Shown here: one piece after another, positions 702-13,614 of the stretch
Position numbering within the stretch: position 1 is the first letter of the stretch
How the letters are laid out: every line of letters begins with the position of its first letter
IMG/VR virus record: IMGVR_UViG_3300010356_000385
Reading direction: 5' to 3' (one strand)
DNA length: 46,158 nt
Origin: a virus
Position numbers and translations under genes: made by a program
The notes under the pieces: model-generated
What the model was told of the DNA's origin: nothing
The model's input: only the letters and a program-made list of their open reading frames with translations
The model's database searches: none

Positions 702-1026
702 AGGTTTTACCAGACAAATTAGTTCTTCCTGTTTTCCAGTTCTTAACTCCATTTTTATACAGCTTATCAGAGTCTTTCGGAACATAAACAACGCCATCTT
801 TATATAGTCTACCCGATTTTCTTTCCACCATTATCCAGCCACAATTCACCATAAACTTTCTAAGAAGCCAATGTTTGATTTTTGTCAAAAACGGTTCGCT
901 TGTACTCTCGGAGAAAACTACAGTTCCCTTGTCCCAGTCTATGTCTACTCTCAAATATCCATAGTGCGTGACTCCTATGGACTCCTTTTTATAATCTTCA
1001 CGAATTATCTTTACAAATGGTTTCAT
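691..1026 (-). CDS. Hypothetical protein (111 aa)
   Basis: ATG ORF with a GGAG-like stretch (aggagcagggag) just upstream of the start. Confidence 0.6.
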   Translation of the reverse strand: MKPFVKIIREDYKKESIGVTHYGYLRVDIDWDKGTVVFSESTSEPFLTKIKHWLLRKFMVNCGWIMVERKSGRLYKDGVVYVPKDSDKLYKNGVKNWKTGRTNLSGKTYED

Positions 1027-1077
1027 CTCCCTGCTCCTTGCTTAAATTAAATTAACTTCATATCTCTTTTTTTCATA

Positions 1078-1101
1078 TCTCTATATAAATAAAATTAACT
1101 A
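1078..1101 (-). repeat. 24-bp exact repeat copy 2
   Basis: Identical to 432..455. It is preceded by the direct repeat ttcatatctct x2 (1056-1083). Confidence 0.8.
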
Positions 1102-1102
1102 A

Positions 1103-1398
1103 TCTTTAATAACTCGGTCTGGAGTGCCACGAGGACATTACCCTCTCCAATTCGTGTCCACCCGTCCCTAACAATGTATTAGTTATAGGTTTCGAAGTTC
1201 CACACTCCCCACCAAGCTATCAAAGAACATACTCAATGAGATACTCTATGTTTGAGACGAGATCGAAGACTCCATAGAGTACCTCACTCAATACCTTAAA
1301 GAACATACTCTGGCTGTTGATTTTACTTTCCATATATATCTGGTAGTAGGGACAACATTTGCCAACGTTTCACCCTCTTTACGTTGCACCATAAAGTC
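1103..1398 (-). ncRNA. Candidate structured RNA or 3' UTR downstream of rsr
   Basis: Part of a 372-nt ORF-free gap, far larger than the 10-60-nt spacers elsewhere. GAGTATGTTCTTT occurs twice on the minus strand. An 11-bp stem pairs GGTACTCTATG with CATAGAGTATC, and a GGAC..GTCC stem is also present. Confidence 0.3.
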
Positions 1399-2826
1399 TT
1401 ACTCTAGCACTATCGATTTAATATACTCAACCATAGAACCTCCTTTTTCATATATTCCAATAAAGTCTAATAGTCTATCCGACCAACCTGTTAAGTGTAT
1501 TACTCTTTGGCTTGAAATATCTTTAGTTCCGTATCCTTCAATATCTATTGCGTATACATAAGGATCTATTTTCATAATATTCTTATATTGGTTATACTGT
1601 GCTTGTGTACCACCTTCTCTTCCATACCAACCATAACTATCTGCCCAAGACTCGTTATCAGAAATTATGATTATTCTGTCGTATTCCTTTCTCTTGTCCT
1701 CTGCATATGCAAAAACTAAAGATGTATTTGTACCACCACCCCTAGCCTCCGATTGTATCTTCTTTGCTAAATCTATTACTGGCATTCTACTAGAAAATGC
1801 AAACTCGTAAACGCTTGTATCATAAAGAATTAGATCTGCATTTACGTTTGCCTTTGCCAACGTAGATCCAAAGATAGAAGCTATTTCCATTGGTCTTCCA
1901 CTCATTGATCCAGAACAGTCAATAGCTATCAATGTACTACCATTTAATTCTGGAGTATTGTCTACTGCATAATCCATAGCTACAGATATTGCGTCTGTTA
2001 ATTGTCTGTTTCCACTTACATTGTCGTATGCAGTAACAAACCTAAATGGTAATTGTTTAGACCTTTTAACCTCTTCTCTGTCTGTTAGCTTGGCTATAGC
2101 CTTATTTAGAACCTCTTGAGATACGTCGTTCTTAATGAGGTTGTTTAAATTTCTAAGTAATGCCATATATCCCATTTTGTTTTCTAGTATTAGCTTCTCC
2201 CAATTATCTTTCTTGTTCTCGGCGTTAGAAGATGAAATTACCGCCTCCCAAGTTTTACCTGTTGATTTCAAGTTTCCCTCAATCAAATCCTTCCAAGCCT
2301 TTTGTTGCTCTTCTGTCGCAAATTGAGGCTTTGGGTGAACCATATTAAATATGTCTACCAGTTTAACCTCCTTCTTTTCTCCTCTATATTTAGCTAGTTT
2401 GTATGGAGAGAATTTGTATAAAGCTCTTCTAATACCTCTTTTTACCTGCTTTGGTAGTTTACACTCTAAGTATGAAGCTAACTCTGTTAGATCATCAACC
2501 CTTGTAACGGTGTTTTTAATAGCCCTCATTACAAGATCATCTCCTTTGTGTATTTTGGCCAACTCTCCTAAGAGCACAGTTGATACACTTCTTAGATTGA
2601 ACTCTATCCTTGATACATACGCTAGGTTTGCGACAAAAACAGGATCGCACTTTGCGACCAAACCCTGTATTCTTGTGAGTCTGTTGTCTCCACTCTCGTA
2701 ATACTTGTCATCTAGAAATGTTGTTAGAACTGCGTGTAGCAATTCTTGCTCTGCGTTCATTTTAAACGCTTTTCCACCAGCTTTGTTGGTAGTGGTGTTG
2801 TCTACCTTTGTGTTAAATCTTGACAT
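1399..2826 (-). CDS. rsr: Ro60/Rsr orthologue (TROVE domain plus vWA domain), 475 aa
   Basis: Several strings align with Ro60 landmarks. MGYMALLRNLNNL matches MPLTALLRNLGKM and KQLPFRFVTAY matches ARIHPFHILIA. LIAIDCSGSM is a MIDAS DxSxS motif. GGGTNTSL, IIISDNESWA and LTGWSDRLLDFI also match. Confidence 0.9.
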   Translation of the reverse strand: MSRFNTKVDNTTTNKAGGKAFKMNAEQELLHAVLTTFLDDKYYESGDNRLTRIQGLVAKCDPVFVANLAYVSRIEFNLRSVSTVLLGELAKIHKGDDLVMRAIKNTVTRVDDLTELASYLECKLPKQVKRGIRRALYKFSPYKLAKYRGEKKEVKLVDIFNMVHPKPQFATEEQQKAWKDLIEGNLKSTGKTWEAVISSSNAENKKDNWEKLILENKMGYMALLRNLNNLIKNDVSQEVLNKAIAKLTDREEVKRSKQLPFRFVTAYDNVSGNRQLTDAISVAMDYAVDNTPELNGSTLIAIDCSGSMSGRPMEIASIFGSTLAKANVNADLILYDTSVYEFAFSSRMPVIDLAKKIQSEARGGGTNTSLVFAYAEDKRKEYDRIIIISDNESWADSYGWYGREGGTQAQYNQYKNIMKIDPYVYAIDIEGYGTKDISSQRVIHLTGWSDRLLDFIGIYEKGGSMVEYIKSIVLE

Positions 2827-3149
2827 AGATTTAATAATAAAAATTTAAGGGGAAAGTAAAGTACGGAAATAACGAGCATCACGTTGTGCTTCATGACCAG
2901 AAGTAACCGTACTTATTACCACCCATTAAGGAGGAAAAAGGTGGAACAGCACGTTTTGAATCCGCAGTTCGAAGTATCTGTTCCTTTACCCTCCTTAGCG
3001 AGAGGTAATAGGGGTAAACGAGGTCGGTAATATATGACTTGTATATATTAGACAAGGAATTAATGTCTCCCGACTTGGCACAGGCATTCACCTGTAGGAG
3101 TCGCCGAAGCGACAGTTTCAATGATTATTGAAGTAACCGACCTCTCACC

Positions 3150-3262
3150 ACCAGTTCAGTAGGGGCGAACAGTACAACAGCTTAAACCCTTTCGGGAGTA
3201 TAGGGATCGAACCTACTAATTTCTTGGAAAGAAATCTTAGCCAGAAGTATCTGTTGTTTCGC
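3150..3262 (-). ncRNA. Second, degenerate tRNA-like module
   Basis: On the minus strand there is a 7-bp hairpin ATTTCTT-TCC-AAGAAAT. A T-arm GTAGG-TTCGATC-CCTAT (3216-3200) follows, then a CCC-GAAA-GGG hairpin (3196-3187). The D-arm is not canonical. Confidence 0.4.
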
Positions 3263-3269
3263 ACCCCCT

Positions 3270-3398
3270 GATGTAGGGGTCAAGTGTTACAGTATATTTA
3301 GCGCTCTACCATCTGAGCTAACGCCCGAAGGCGTGTTGGATTTGAACCAACGACCTCTCCTTTATCATAGGAAGTAACTGTAACTTAACCCTACTAAA
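3270..3398 (-). ncRNA. yrlA: YrlA-type Y RNA candidate with a circularly permuted tRNA-like domain
   Basis: The minus strand reads AGGTC, then the T-arm GTTGG-TTCAAAT-CCAAC. Next is a closed acceptor hairpin ACGCC-TTCG-GGCGT, then TA, then the D-arm GCTC-AGATGGTA-GAGC (3356-3301). An imperfect long stem closes the module: GTAGGG/CCCTAC, AAG/CTT and TTACAG/CTGTAA (3394-3376 with 3296-3273). Confidence 0.7.
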
Positions 3399-3700
3399 CC
3401 AGTGGCGACCTTAATTTTAAAAGAACTGTTAGGTACTCTAAGACCCACACATTCACCACCTAGGCTGGTAATATGTGAGTTACCCGTTTGTACGAACAGG
3501 TAAAGGGCGACTTAGTAACGGTGTATAGCCTGAGTCCGTGTCCCTCCTTGTTCTGTATCCCTTTCACAGAGCACAGGTCGAGTTATATACCTCGCTATGT
3601 TGCGCTATACAGGTCTTACAATACCCAACTTTTAAAGAACTACTTTGTCCACTCTTGCCAAGTTTCTAGTAATATCTCGCCGATCATAGCAAGAAGACCA

Positions 3701-3741
3701 AAAACTATTGGGAGTACTACATACAAAAGGATTGGTACTCC
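3701..3741 (-). terminator. Intrinsic terminator candidate after gene 3768..4211
   Basis: 7-bp stem GGAGTAC..GTACTCC, followed on the minus strand by CAATAGTTTTT. Confidence 0.5.
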
Positions 3742-3767
3742 TACAATCACTAACAATATCGTCATAT

Positions 3768-4211
3768 TCAATATCTCTCATTAAATACAAAATAACCGCC
3801 TTTTAATTCTCTTTTTCGTCTAATTCTTTTAGTAGACTCGTCGGCGTCAAGATCTGGATTTAACTCTTGAACTTTTCTTCTAGCCCTAGTTATTGTCTCT
3901 GGCGTTGGACATATTAGAAAATTTTCATAATCAAGCATACCGTCTTTTAAGTGTCCCATACTCTGGTACACCGCCCATATTAGTCTCCTATCACTTGATC
4001 TTGCTTCTTTATCTTGTTCTAGTATCAACTTTACTAGATCATACATACTTCCTTTATTTGGCTTCCTGTATATGCTTTCTTTATTTTTCACTTCGGGTAT
4101 GTCTTCCCTAACATACTCTACTCCACAACCCTCCCCGCAGTCGCTACACCTACCTATAAACCCATTCGAGCCTATAACTTTAGCACCACAACAGTTACTT
4201 ACTTCGACCAT
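3768..4211 (-). CDS. Hypothetical protein with a Cys-rich zinc-ribbon-like N-terminus (147 aa)
   Basis: CCGAKV..CSDCGEGCG cysteine cluster and a basic C-terminal half. Confidence 0.65.
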   Translation of the reverse strand: MVEVSNCCGAKVIGSNGFIGRCSDCGEGCGVEYVREDIPEVKNKESIYRKPNKGSMYDLVKLILEQDKEARSSDRRLIWAVYQSMGHLKDGMLDYENFLICPTPETITRARRKVQELNPDLDADESTKRIRRKRELKGGYFVFNERY

Positions 4212-10788: not shown

Positions 10789-10844
10789 ATAAAATAATAT
10801 TAAAAATTTATTAATGGGATAATCTTTTTTGATTATCTTAACTC

Positions 10845-10873
10845 AATATACCACGAACACAAACAAGTGTCAA
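10845..10873 (-). promoter_or_regulatory. Leftward sigma70-type promoter
   Basis: The minus strand reads TTGACA-CTTGTTTGTGTTCGTGG-TATATT with a 17-nt spacer. It shares the TTCGTGGTAT block with the promoter at 6710-6738. Confidence 0.6.
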
Positions 10874-11135
10874 GTAGTATGTATATGAATATAATGGCTT
10901 GTAGTAATTCAACGGCTTTGATCTTGTCAATTTGGCGTAATAACAAGCACCCCGTTATATACCCATTAAGAGAATAATATATAAAATATCTAGTAATATT
11001 GGTATGTAATATCTATTAATCAGCGTAACTAACAAGAACCGTCCCATCTTCACCCCTATATACATATAAACAATACCTAGTATATAAGTTATATCTAGAT
11101 CATTAAGGGTATGAGGTATCTAAAGGTTGAGTATC

Positions 11136-11261
11136 TTATCCACTTATCCACAACGACGCCCGAGTTATCCACATAGTTATCCACAATTATATATATTGCA
11201 ATAATATGCACCTATAAAGGATAATTGACATATCTAGATCATAGTTATCCACATATCCACA
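11136..11261 (+). promoter_or_regulatory. Cluster of six same-orientation DnaA boxes (oriC-like or DnaA-titrating element)
   Basis: Perfect TTATCCACA at 11144, 11165, 11177 and 11245. 8/9 matches at 11136 (TTATCCACT) and 11253 (ATATCCACA). The flanking 13-mer ATATCTAGATCAT occurs twice (11091, 11231) and carries GATC. Confidence 0.7.
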
Positions 11262-11316
11262 TACCCTATTACTACTATCTCTAGTATTAATATATATCTA
11301 GAATTATATTATATTA

Positions 11317-11370
11317 TATGTATGTATGAGTATGTAATAGTATGTATATGTATGTATATGTATGTATATA
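11317..11370. repeat. Degenerate TATGTA/TATG tandem repeat tract (AT-rich unwinding-element candidate)
   Basis: The tract reads tatgtatgtatgagtatgtaatagtatgtatatgtatgtatatgtatgtatata. It is embedded in nearly pure A/T sequence next to the DnaA boxes. Confidence 0.75.
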
Positions 11371-11402
11371 TAACTAGATCCCGATACCGATATATATTTT
11401 TA

Positions 11403-11431
11403 TGGCAAGTATATATATAAATTTTTATAAT
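11403..11431 (+). promoter_or_regulatory. Candidate rightward promoter (-10 TATAAT)
   Basis: TATAAT at 11426-11431 with a weak -35 TGGCAA 17 nt upstream. Confidence 0.3.
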
Positions 11432-11442
11432 AATATTATTTT

Positions 11443-12410: not shown

Positions 12411-12657
12411 TGATGATAATGGTATTAGTGGTACTGGGGTAGTGTTAGACGGGGTAATATTTCCAAATGGTAGGGTGGTGGTGTGTTGGAAAGCTGGTAA
12501 TGGTAAAAGTAAGTGTGGTAGTATTAATATATACGACAGTATAGAGGATTTTGAGGACATTCATGTGACTCATCATCCTGGGAATGGGACAGAATTAGTG
12601 GGTTATGATCTTGATGCGGAGGTAGAGCAGCGGCAGCTTGCTAGTCTCATAAACTAG
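12373..12657 (+). CDS. Hypothetical protein (94 aa from the ATG at 12373)
   Basis: GGAGGTGG lies 4 nt upstream of the ATG, whereas the track start at 12337 is GTG. The last 14 codons run into tRNA-Met. Confidence 0.5.
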   Translation: MEQMIPFQMIRHNDDNGISGTGVVLDGVIFPNGRVVVCWKAGNGKSKCGSINIYDSIEDFEDIHVTHHPGNGTELVGYDLDAEVEQRQLASLIN

Positions 12658-12690
12658 AGGTCAGGGGTTCGAGTCCCCTCCCCGCAACCA
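12614..12690 (+). tRNA. tRNA-Met: tRNA-Met (anticodon CAT; elongator or Ile2-type), CCA encoded
   Basis: Anticodon arm CTAGT-CTCATAA-ACTAG, T-arm AGGGG-TTCGAGT-CCCCT, acceptor TGCGGAG/CCCCGCA, then A and CCA. Confidence 0.85.
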
Positions 12691-12701
12691 GCTCTTTAAC
12701 A

Positions 12702-12775
12702 GGTGGCGTAGCCCAATTGGCAGAGGCTCCGATCTCAAAAATCGGCCAGTGTTGGTTCGAGTCCAGCCGTCACTA
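12702..12775 (+). tRNA. tRNA-Leu-like: Class-I-shaped tRNA with Leu anticodon CAA (74 nt, 5-nt variable loop, no encoded CCA)
   Basis: Reads GGTGGCG TA GCC-CAATTGGCAGA-GGC T CCGAT-CTCAAAA-ATCGG CCAGT GTTGG-TTCGAGT-CCAGC CGTCACT A. Confidence 0.8.
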
Positions 12776-12776
12776 A

Positions 12777-12850
12777 GCGCGTGTATCCCAATTGGCAGAG
12801 GAAGCTGTCTTAGAAACAGTTGAGTGCAAGTTCGAGTCTTGCCATGCGCA
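12777..12850 (+). tRNA. tRNA-Leu-like: Class-I-shaped tRNA with Leu anticodon TAG (74 nt, no encoded CCA)
   Basis: Reads GCGCGTG TA TCC-CAATTGGCAGA-GGA A GCTGT-CTTAGAA-ACAGT TGAGT GCAAG-TTCGAGT-CTTGC CATGCGC A. Confidence 0.8.
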
Positions 12851-12854
12851 CTTT

Positions 12855-12928
12855 GGATAGGTAGTCCAATTGGCAGAGACAGCGGACTTAAAATCCGTCC
12901 AGTGAGAGTTCGACTCTCTCCCTATCTA
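12855..12928 (+). tRNA. tRNA-Leu-like: Class-I-shaped tRNA with Leu anticodon TAA (74 nt, no encoded CCA)
   Basis: Reads GGATAGG TA GTC-CAATTGGCAGA-GAC A GCGGA-CTTAAAA-TCCGT CCAGT GAGAG-TTCGACT-CTCTC CCTATCT A. Confidence 0.8.
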
Positions 12929-12929
12929 C

Positions 12930-13013
12930 GGAAGATTGGCAGAGTGGTAATGCAGCAGTCTTGAAAACTGTAACGGTTAAATGCCGTCAGAGGTTCGAAT
13001 CCTTTATCTTCCG
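12930..13013 (+). tRNA. tRNA-Ser: tRNA-Ser (TGA), class II
   Basis: Anticodon arm GCAGT-CTTGAAA-ACTGT, long variable arm AACGGTTAAATGCCGTC, T-arm AGAGG-TTCGAAT-CCTTT, discriminator G. Confidence 0.85.
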
Positions 13014-13015
13014 CT

Positions 13016-13103
13016 GGAAAGTTGACAGAGCGGCTGATTGTGCTTCTTTGCTAAAGAAGTGGGTGTAAAAGCCTCGTGGGTTCGAATCCTACACTTTCCG
13101 CCA
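13016..13103 (+). tRNA. tRNA-Ser: tRNA-Ser (GCT), class II, CCA encoded
   Basis: Anticodon arm CTTCT-TTGCTAA-AGAAG, long variable arm, T-arm GTGGG-TTCGAAT-CCTAC, acceptor GGAAAGT/ACTTTCC, then G and CCA. Confidence 0.85.
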
Positions 13104-13104
13104 A

Positions 13105-13191
13105 GCAAGTACTGTAGAGACGGTGAGCTACGCTTGTCTGTAAAACAAGTCCTTTCGGGGTGTATAGGTTCGAATCCTATTACTTGCACCA
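13105..13191 (+). tRNA. tRNA-Tyr: tRNA-Tyr (GTA), class II, CCA encoded
   Basis: Anticodon arm CTTGT-CTGTAAA-ACAAG, variable arm TCCTTTCGGGGTGT, acceptor GCAAGTA/TACTTGC, then A and CCA. Confidence 0.85.
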
Positions 13192-13234
13192 GTGTTATTA
13201 GAATGGTATAAAATATTAAGATCTTTAAAAACAT

Positions 13235-13309
13235 GGTGGATATGGTTTATTGGTAAAATACCCTGCTGTGAACAAAGAGAAATTGGTTCGATTCCAATTA
13301 TCTACCCCA
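13235..13309 (+). tRNA. tRNA-His: tRNA-His (GTG) with genome-encoded G-1, CCA encoded
   Basis: An extra 5' G lies opposite discriminator C. Anticodon loop is CTGTGAA and the T-arm is ATTGG-TTCGATT-CCAAT. The anticodon stem CCCTG/CAAAG has two C-A mismatches. Confidence 0.7.
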
Positions 13310-13310
13310 T

Positions 13311-13386
13311 GCGAGATTCGTTTAATGGATCAGGATGACTGCCTTCCAAGCAGTGGGTATGGGTTCGATTCCCATATCTCGCACCA
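13311..13386 (+). tRNA. tRNA-Gly: tRNA-Gly (TCC), CCA encoded
   Basis: Anticodon arm ACTGC-CTTCCAA-GCAGT, T-arm ATGGG-TTCGATT-CCCAT, acceptor GCGAGAT/ATCTCGC. The D-stem is weak. Confidence 0.8.
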
Positions 13387-13387
13387 G

Positions 13388-13462
13388 GCTTCTGTAGCTT
13401 AACAGGTAAAGCTGCTGATTTGTAACCAGCCGTTTGAGGTTCGAGTCCTTGCAGAAGCTCCA
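13388..13462 (+). tRNA. tRNA-Thr: tRNA-Thr (TGT), CCA encoded
   Basis: Anticodon loop TTTGTAA, D-arm GCTT-AACAGGTA-AAGC, T-arm TGAGG-TTCGAGT-CCTTG, acceptor GCTTCTG/CAGAAGC. Confidence 0.8.
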
Positions 13463-13463
13463 T

Positions 13464-13538
13464 TAGGGAGTGGTCAAATGGTAAGACGACTGGCTTTGAA
13501 CCAGTAGACTCTAGGTTCGATTCCTAGTTCCCTAACCA
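13464..13538 (+). tRNA. tRNA-Gln: tRNA-Gln (TTG), CCA encoded
   Basis: Anticodon arm ACTGG-CTTTGAA-CCAGT, T-arm CTAGG-TTCGATT-CCTAG. Confidence 0.85.
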
Positions 13539-13539
13539 T

Positions 13540-13614
13540 GGGCTTATAGGCTAATTGGAAAACTATGTCACTTGCAATGACAAGTTCTGAGTTCGATTCT
13601 CAGTAGGTCCACCA
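13540..13614 (+). tRNA. tRNA-Ala: tRNA-Ala (TGC) with a G3-U70 pair, CCA encoded
   Basis: Anticodon arm TGTCA-CTTGCAA-TGACA. Acceptor GGGCTTA/TAGGTCC places a G-T pair at position 3-70. The D-arm is degenerate. Confidence 0.7.

Follow-up and report, generated by a model that had tools for sequence, protein, structure and literature searches.

Introduction

YrlA RNAs are encoded beside the Ro60 genes of 254 bacteria and 22 phages (Chen et al., 2014; PMC4201824). The same study showed that Mycobacterium smegmatis encodes YrlA and YrlB upstream of rsr and makes both by processing of a single precursor, and it warned that tandem tRNAs produce artefacts in YrlA searches (PMC4201824). Among phages, Thermus phage phiLo has a Ro60 of solved structure that binds the host PNPase, attenuating it, and a pair of Y-like RNAs from upstream of its gene (Hu et al., 2025; PMC12135203), and a 2024 PhageMaP preprint reported that the Ro60-like protein gp130 of phage Bas63 counters the ppl defense system (PMC11482910). 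The role of the Ro60-Y RNA particle is poorly understood in bacteria and almost unknown in phages. Here we analyze a Ro60 gene (rsr) and the non-coding DNA that surrounds it in the IMG/VR virus record IMGVR_UViG_3300010356_000385, a stretch of 46,158 nucleotides (nt) that we call the window. All coordinates are those of the window, and the features described lie on its minus strand, unless stated otherwise.

An earlier note on this DNA had proposed that the phage carries its own Ro ribonucleoprotein (RNP). Our results support this proposal: a gene for a Ro60-fold protein is accompanied by five same-strand modules of Y-RNA architecture, whose closing helix covaries across a clade of related loci. 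At a probability of roughly 0.78 and from sequence evidence, we read the locus as a phage-borne Ro60/Y-RNA RNP module, which would act through the mechanism proposed in the Discussion.

Results

The rsr product is predicted to be a Ro60-fold ring protein of a phage clade

The window is a phage genome, with matches to the PHROG families of the large terminase, head-tail adaptor, major head protein and tail fibre. Its rsr gene (1399..2826, minus strand) encodes a Ro60 ortholog of 475 amino acids (aa) composed of a TROVE HEAT-repeat ring and a Ro60-type vWA domain, and the five peptides quoted earlier for this open reading frame (ORF) (ALLRNLNNL, LPFRF, DCSGS, GGGTNTSL and ISDNES) are all present in the translation. 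The Pfam profiles for TROVE (PF05731; 80.4 bits, cutoff 23, E 2e-22) and vWA_Ro60 (PF25045; 37.6 bits, cutoff 27.7, E 2.7e-9) both matched the protein above their cutoffs. In a phmmer search it aligned end to end with the Ro60 of Thermus phage phiLo (PDB 9L5Y/9KOP, titled 'TROVE domain-containing protein'; E 4e-25); human Ro60 (2e-5) and Deinococcus Rsr (7e-4) were weaker matches.

Structure prediction with AlphaFold (AF2), built on 33 homologues, returned a closed ring (doughnut) fold with a predicted local distance difference test (pLDDT) value of 82.8. Foldseek gave this model template modeling (TM) scores of 0.74-0.76 to phiLo Ro60 and of 0.61-0.67 to human, Xenopus and Deinococcus Ro60/Rsr. 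The metal ion-dependent adhesion site (MIDAS) residues D303, S305, S307, T366 and D390 (DxSxS ... T ... D) were invariant across the 33 homologues. The designation Ro60/Rsr given in the earlier note is correct in that the gene encodes a Ro60-type TROVE/vWA protein, but the protein is not an Rsr equivalog, as its score with the NCBIfam model NF041674 is 26.7 bits against a cutoff of 900. From the predicted structure, it is a Ro60-fold ring protein of a phage clade shared with phiLo Ro60 and separate from bacterial Rsr. Phage Ro loci are not limited to the few phages in which they had been noted: 404 of 50,697 phage records encode a relative, all with <40% identity. The clade is large, as 1097 of 8000 scored candidates reached E <= 1e-20, many of them on contigs of ~40 kb.

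Given the minus-strand orientation of the gene, its upstream gap is 2827-3767 (941 nt) and its downstream gap is 1027-1398 (372 nt). Both sizes had been stated earlier and are correct for the ORFs accepted by gene callers; on an identical, circularly permuted public contig (L107) the gene calls are likewise empty in the two gaps.

Five contiguous Y-RNA-like modules lie upstream of rsr

The 941-nt gap contains five contiguous Y-RNA-like modules, M1 to M5 (~3408-2845, minus strand), which bears out the suggestion that several Y RNAs might accompany the gene. They lie on the same strand as the Ro60 gene and 18-582 nt upstream of it. All five share the 10-mer CRGWTACTTC, whose copies in the window (5 against 0.31 expected) are all on the minus strand in 2900-3380. 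Each copy tops a 7-8-bp helix, the partner strand of which lies 42-125 nt downstream, and next to the helix come a lower stem and an internal loop that is asymmetric. At the RNA level, the signature of all modules is a helix ending in C-R-G followed by W-U-A-C-U-U-C, where CUUC opens a short second hairpin; in the short modules this CUUC pairs with a downstream GAAR into a small hairpin. The modules are spaced by 0-5 nt and their lower stems partly share bases (M4 and M5 overlap at 2929-2927). Their predicted spans are 122 nt for M1, 108 for M2, 140 for M3, 71 for M4 and 85 for M5, to be compared with the 80-130 nt of the Y RNA definition.

M1 (3273..3394) is of the YrlA type. Its lower stem is formed by 3394-3389 and 3279-3273 and its helix by 3384-3378 and 3292-3286, followed by UUACUUC at 3377-3371. 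The distal domain contains a V hairpin, a T arm (GUUGGUUCAAAUCCAAC), a 4-bp acceptor-like stem capped by UUCG and a D arm (UAGCUCAGAUGGUAGAGC), so that M1 is, by its predicted fold, a complete circularly permuted tRNA mimic with T arm, acceptor-like stem and D arm. M2 (3161..3268) has a lower stem of 3268-3262 and 3167-3161, a CGAA bulge, a helix of 3257-3251 and 3180-3174, and AUACUUC at 3250-3244. Its inner domain lacks a D arm and comprises a GAAA-capped stem and a T-arm-like hairpin (GUAGGUUCGAUCCCUAUAC) that the Rfam tRNA model detects; M2 is thus a putative partial tRNA mimic with a T arm. The same model joins the D arm of M1 to a second T arm near 3200.

The remaining modules carry three unrelated hairpin domains at their distal ends. 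M3 (3013..3152) starts with GGUGGUGA at 3152-3145 and has an 8-bp helix (3144-3137 with 3027-3020), UUACUUC at 3136-3130 and an inner domain of 109 nt with several hairpins and without tRNA-like arms. M4 (2927..2997) and M5 (2845..2929) are short. The former consists of a lower stem (2997-2990 with 2934-2927), a helix (2984-2978 with 2949-2943) and AUACUUC at 2977-2971; the latter of a lower stem (2929-2922 with 2852-2845), a helix (2914-2907 with 2866-2859) and UUACUUC at 2906-2900, with its 3' end 18 nt from the rsr start codon.

A YrlA covariance search had been suggested for both flanks. With relaxed settings, the Rfam model YrlA (RF02553) matched 3273-3392 on the minus strand with 37.7 bits (E 5e-6), below its gathering score of 69, and gave no match in 1027-1398. 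Besides YrlA and tRNA, the only Rfam matches at E up to 10 over 900-3900 were to mir-154, on the hairpin of element D (see below), and to ppoRNA, and we rejected both as hairpin-shape artefacts.

We also built a covariance model, R1, from an alignment of 32 YrlA-type modules with M1 of the window as the first. Searched against the whole window, R1 scored 99.3 bits for M1 (E 3e-23), 29.5 for M4 (E 1e-5) and 20.2 for M5 (E 0.003). M3 scored 24.7 bits (E 1e-5) with filters off, and M2 22.4 bits when searched alone, being otherwise masked by overlap. The other R1 matches in the window at E <0.01 were exclusively tandem-tRNA junctions (21-29 bits), confined to the tRNA-like part of the model. Because adjacent-tRNA junctions yield such partial false matches, wider screens for YrlA-type RNAs must mask tRNA arrays.

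The closing helix and the tRNA-like arms covary in related phage loci

For comparison we used 99 related loci (designated L plus a number) from metagenomes and viral contigs, with closer relatives obtained by exact protein look-up. Of the 99, 58 contained CRGWTACTTC; in most of these, 1-6 copies in a row precede the TROVE gene on its own strand. The helix reaches 8 bp or more in 64% of 100 unique modules, against 10% of random positions. Positions 7 and 8 of this helix, which were not used in the selection, paired in 84% and 75% of the modules, against 50% and 44% with shuffled partners. Position 9 is a conserved A mismatch, which makes the helix exactly 8 bp long. The lengths of the inner domains cluster at 20-32 nt and 84-92 nt.

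The RNAalifold consensus of the 32 YrlA-type modules consists of four helices, of which the closing helix was partly selected for and the three inner ones were unselected. In this alignment 94.9% of the cells were paired, compared with 68% in column shuffles and 38-47% with slid partners. Compensatory changes were observed in 20 of the 24 pairs (4/5 in the T arm, 7/7 in the acceptor-like stem and 3/4 in the D arm), and the covariation score was 0.73 versus 0.21, a value reached by none of 500 shuffles. R1 in turn matched 92 related loci with 160 hits at E <1e-3, all of them on the strand of the TROVE gene. The Rfam YrlA model scored 53.5 bits in the relative L001, which is also below the gathering score of 69.

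Among close relatives, which have 3 to 5 modules, positions are kept and contents are swapped. The closest long relative, L100, shares 81% protein identity, and orthologous last modules stand at the M5 position in L100, L102, L001, L082 and L103. The first position, a tRNA mimic in the window, is a 24-nt hairpin in L001, and the second position is a tRNA mimic in L001 and L100. From these sequences, the distal domains appear to behave as swappable cassettes.

Modules were also present in cultured phages. Caulobacter phage CcrColossus (JX100810; L153 1259-2457, upstream of gp139) has seven modules in an unannotated gap beside its TROVE gene, annotated as 'putative TROVE-like domain protein', and one of the seven overlaps a feature annotated as tRNA-Gln. 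Xanthomonas phage Fontebon (MW822538; L151 1844-2461) has four in an unannotated gap, and its TROVE gene is annotated as a hypothetical protein. The crAss-like phage PhiCrAssBcn17, also cultured, gave three weak R1 matches, in a large gap without annotation downstream of the TROVE gene. Searches of the phage collection with the whole region and with the elements S0 and D described below found no near-identical or distant DNA match, and a scan of the genome collection for prophage relatives returned two matches only, both in metagenome-assembled genomes and uninformative on the host.

M1 and M2 may form one double-headed unit

An outer helix of ~20 bp (inverted repeat I4; minimum free energy fold) pairs 3408-3389 with 3164-3145 and thereby encloses M1 and M2 (3145..3408). 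It competes with the lower stems of the two modules themselves. The corresponding duplex, of -31 to -36 kcal/mol, is conserved in L100, L001, L082, L103 and L108 with compensatory changes, for example GUAGGG/CCCUAC versus GUGGGG/CCCUCAC. Because the four strands of the junction covary together, an arrangement of two independent lower stems and one of an outer helix plus an inner hairpin are not separable. On these sequences, M1 and M2 look like one double-headed unit of ~265 nt built around a multi-helix junction, and the 20-bp helix tying them together argues that at least these two modules act as one.

Just 5' of the array, at 3413..3427, lies the motif AGUUCUUUUAAAA, of the form (A)GUUCUUU(U)A..A, with a second copy at 3641-3629. 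In L100, L001, L082, L103, L108, L003 and L092 it stands 6-15 nt ahead of the first module. It shows no enrichment in the rest of the window and may be a promoter/start or a processing signal for the array. We rejected AGTTCTTTWAAAA as a genome-wide promoter, as it has 10 matches in the window where 8.9 are expected; without such enrichment, it is specific to the 5' edge of the array.

Counterevidence and rival explanations of the array

Several observations speak against a Ro60/Y-RNA module. The RNP and its binding are predictions from sequence and modeled structure. The two curated models fall short of their thresholds (YrlA 37.7 bits of 69; Rsr 26.7 of 900), and M2-M5 reach just 20-30 bits with R1, near the 21-29 bits of the false matches at tandem tRNAs. 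Modules were selected to have 6 bp or more of helix, which inflates the pairing figures for the first six helix positions. The published Ro-recognition motif GNCGAAN0-1G, looked for in the 25 nt upstream of the helix, was found in 0 of 100 unique modules. M2 has a near-miss, UGCGAA, and the clade consensus at this place is GCAUUGCA / GCAGUGCA / GGUGGUGA. Since the motif is absent, our proposal that Ro binds the CRG-WUACUUC stem draws on conservation and position and not on homology to the mapped site. Lastly, the elements S0 and D are unexplained, so that 'self-contained module', the term of the earlier note, may not cover everything in the gaps.

The modules could also serve mainly as a cis-acting leader of the rsr mRNA, where Ro would bind its own 5' untranslated region and autoregulate translation or stability, and would not bind free Y RNAs. 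They are indeed contiguous with the gene, on its strand and with no terminator-like site in between; M5 ends 18 nt before the AUG without an obvious Shine-Dalgarno sequence; relatives keep a last module, and AU-rich DNA ahead of the start codon, in the same places; and the Y RNAs and rsr of M. smegmatis share a single precursor (PMC4201824). However, in L078, L061, L072, L099, L017 and the crAss-like PhiCrAssBcn17 the modules are downstream of the TROVE gene and cannot be leaders there, and covarying T, acceptor and D arms have no obvious autoregulatory role. We therefore hold a mainly cis-acting function to be improbable, with the proviso that leader and Y-RNA roles are not mutually exclusive and that a leader is compatible as a second role of M5. 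A still smaller chance, of the order of a few in a hundred, goes to the gaps holding small protein genes with incidental RNA structure. Small ORFs do exist (76 aa at 2891-3121, 43 aa at 3640-3771 and 34-37 aa in 1220-1392), and the 43-aa one is hydrophobic and starts 3 nt past the preceding stop. Yet public gene callers call none of them, the 43-aa peptide is unmatched in related loci, and substitutions in the array keep base pairs, not codons; moreover, the number of modules and their inner domains differ by whole units between close relatives, and the downstream element folds strand-specifically (z -6.1 vs -1.3). That the tRNA-like pieces are decayed tRNA genes, or the remnant of a second array, unrelated to Ro, is suggested by the 30 bits of the Rfam tRNA model across 3192-3327 and by the array of 15 tRNAs elsewhere in the phage. 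Against this, ARAGORN detected no tRNA in the region, the arms are in permuted order (T arm, acceptor-like stem, D arm) inside a covarying closing helix, as in YrlA, and the linkage to the TROVE gene holds in 92 loci, always on the same strand. We regard this last explanation as scarcely credible, and favor the Ro60/Y-RNA module over all three.

Two structured elements flank the module

Outside the array, each gap contains one structured element without an assigned family. S0 (3411..3639) is closed by an 18-bp stem (3629-3612 with 3445-3428) and has a folding z of -4.3 on the gene strand and -3.4 on the opposite strand. D (1101..1398), downstream of rsr, is composed of a long hairpin (1297-1228) with 16 contiguous pairs, ~22 in all, and a pyrimidine-rich loop, followed by a stem-closed domain of 125 nt (1227-1103) that opens GGUGG...ACUUCGAA. 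Its z value is -6.1 for the gene strand but -1.3 for the opposite one, so that the structure of D is specific to the gene strand. Neither blastn (word size 7) nor nhmmer detected homologues of S0 or D in 108 related loci, and neither element has a match to an Rfam RNA family or to R1. Exact 15-16-mers of S0 or D gave 40 matches in viral contigs, which lacked extended similarity and were rejected as chance. In local alignments of the two elements with the array and with each other, 68, 295 and 48 of 300 shuffles scored as high; as these alignments are not significant, we do not claim S0 and D as decayed modules. Neither the downstream gap nor the initial 230 nt of the upstream gap, though structured, is demonstrably Y RNA.

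At the position of S0, the relative L100 has a 214-nt element (3342-3555 of that locus; z -7.4) between two copies of GTTCTTTWAAAA, with no sequence similarity to S0. Structured RNAs that differ between relatives seem to be accepted at this place, upstream of the array.

Whether S0 and D belong with Ro at all is evenly balanced in our judgment. Additional partners of Ro, hairpins for processing and unrelated cargo are all candidate identities. If not partners of Ro, they would sit in a permissive non-coding hotspot as terminators, RNase III sites, insertion relics or other small RNAs. The missing homologues and family matches favor this separation from Ro, as do the close relatives without any gap at the position of D, the different element that L100 holds in the same repeat bracketing, and the long near-perfect hairpin of D (~22 pairs), the kind that RNase III cuts. 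On the other side, both elements share the strand of the Ro gene, border the module and are enriched in G+C, and they show a weak, non-significant GGUGG...CUUMGA likeness to the 5' strands of the modules. Bacterial Ro, moreover, binds extra Y RNAs missed by bioinformatics, including long hairpins with pyrimidine-rich loops (PMC4201824).

Layout of the gaps and of other non-coding regions

The description of the flanking DNA as structured and non-coding agrees with its composition and folding. Its G+C content is 0.43-0.455 in 2900-3700 and 0.40-0.425 in 1100-1400, against ~0.35 in coding DNA, and the gene-strand z values of S0 and D and the excess of CRGWTACTTC copies given above point the same way. 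A scan for sigma-70 promoters and intrinsic terminators returned counts at the shuffle expectation and is for that reason uninformative.

The 3' strand of M5 leads straight into an AU-rich stretch before the rsr start codon (CCCCUUAAAUUUUUAUUAUUAAAUCU-AUG; 2827-2852, minus strand), in which no Shine-Dalgarno sequence is obvious. A similar AU-rich sequence is kept before the TROVE start codon in L001, L082, L100 and L103. This arrangement hints that translation of rsr is coupled to the folding of M5 or to Ro binding.

At the other end of the upstream gap, the strongly hydrophobic ORF of 43 aa (41 aa from its ATG; 3640..3771, minus strand) begins 3 nt past the stop of gene 3768-4211. It has no match among related loci and is not called by public gene callers. 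It may be a real gene for a small membrane protein, in which case the upstream gap would measure ~813 nt.

In the downstream gap, the final ~75 nt (1027..1100) are an AT-rich spacer in which AGTTAATTTWATTTA occurs twice and the next gene has its ribosome-binding site. AGTTAATTTWATTTA occurs exactly at 1100-1086, 1057-1043 and 454-440 (minus strand), always 5' of minus-strand genes, and with <=2 mismatches it has 9 matches in the window where 1.3 are expected. The motif probably serves the phage as a promoter or a regulatory element. Because it also precedes another minus-strand gene, the spacer is probably the promoter of gene 691-1026 and lies outside the RNP module.

We compared these gaps with the rest of the window on a greedy map of its ORFs. 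That rsr alone has large gaps, as had been claimed, is almost correct: besides its gaps, only the tRNA array and 10789-11442 are long and free of ORFs. The tRNA array, of 15 genes at 12615-14193 on the plus strand, was confirmed by ARAGORN and Rfam. The 654 nt of 10789-11442 are without an ORF of at least 45 aa, lie where minus-strand genes switch to plus-strand genes and may represent an origin or a region of divergent promoters; with its gathering threshold, Rfam gave no match there.

Discussion

We propose the following mechanism for the module. The array would be transcribed from a signal near AGUUCUUUUAAAA, probably together with rsr; we infer this co-transcription because two Y RNAs of M. 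smegmatis are processed from one precursor upstream of rsr. The conserved stem and UACUUC element of each module would then dock one Ro ring, leaving the variable distal domains as effector or decoy ends that tether or sequester host RNA enzymes. PNPase is a candidate target of the distal domains, on the precedent of phiLo Ro60 with Yrl1 and Yrl2, and tRNA-binding enzymes are candidates for M1 and M2. Data from phiLo, Deinococcus and Salmonella suggest that the distal domains might contact the KH/S1 domains of PNPase in a RYPER-like complex (PMC12135203, PMC4201824). In this manner the phage may reprogram or blunt host RNA decay, RNA surveillance or RNA-directed defense during infection.

A bolder extension, which we think unlikely, though worth stating, is that the whole ~560-nt array is one polyvalent scaffold RNA. 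With M1 and M2 as its core, it would carry up to five Ro rings and five effector or decoy domains, and the resulting 'poly-Ro' particle would sequester host PNPase along with tRNA-directed defense or repair enzymes. S0 and D would be clade-variable cargo RNAs, and modules would be gained, lost and swapped as cassettes.

A phage Ro RNP by itself will not surprise specialists. A large and environmentally widespread clade of phage Ro60 proteins travels with arrays of 3-7 Y-RNA modules, and the curated Rfam and NCBIfam models miss it. The CRG-WUACUUC element with its 8-bp helix is a defined element that can be tested for Ro binding, and the distal domains constitute a natural effector series for screens of host partners. 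With the multi-module arrays, the new signature and the presence of arrays in the cultured phages CcrColossus and Fontebon, which have tractable hosts, the role of a phage Ro is directly testable.

Several described systems resemble the locus in part. The Rsr-YrlA/YrlB systems of Salmonella Typhimurium and M. smegmatis share with the window same-strand Y RNAs beside a Ro60 gene and a closing stem formed by the RNA ends. Bacterial YrlA is, like M1, a circularly permuted tRNA mimic, and in both cases there are shorter additional Y RNAs that lack the mimic. The YrlB of M. smegmatis keeps the T arm, as M2 does, and the Y RNAs of this species are likewise upstream of rsr. In contrast to the two Y RNAs of bacterial Rsr loci, there are five contiguous modules here, with a 20-bp outer helix around M1 and M2 and with no rtcB/rtcA repair genes nearby in the window. 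In place of the GNCGAAN0-1G of bacterial YrlA, the modules have G-Y-R-K-U-G-Y-A and the invariant CRG-WUACUUC.

Among phages, the closest solved relative is phiLo Ro60, which is also phage-encoded and has its Y-like RNAs in the non-coding region upstream; its Yrl1, with two binding hairpins, can be likened to the M1+M2 unit. The identity between the two proteins is only ~23%. The RNAs of phiLo number two, were recognized from CGAA motifs and RNAfold predictions only, and had no tRNA-like domain described; the window has five modules, with covariation over ~100 loci and one full YrlA-type tRNA mimic.

Ro-like proteins of cluster C mycobacteriophages were reportedly noted by Pedulla in 2003. These and other actinophages combine, like the window, a phage TROVE/vWA protein with a YrlA-type RNA, but their proteins align over just 40-55% of the window protein at ~25% identity, and their genomes are of 115-190 kb. 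Arrays of at least five modules are not described for them in the literature searched. Bas63 gp130 is, like the protein of the window, a phage Ro60-fold protein near tRNA-like genes. The likeness rests on the structural similarity reported by its authors, no Y RNAs were mapped there, and gp130 has a measured infection phenotype, its action against the ppl system. More generally, we found no description of multi-module arrays in the literature searched, which did not include the supplementary tables of Chen et al. (2014), where arrays in CcrColossus may already be listed.

The kind of system is thus already known, as both phage YrlA RNAs and a phage Ro60-Y RNA-PNPase complex have been published (PMC4201824, PMC12135203). 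What the present locus adds to them is the array of five modules (seven in CcrColossus), the CRG-WUACUUC signature, the putative double-headed M1+M2 junction and the apparently swappable distal domains, in a clade for which the curated models stay below threshold.

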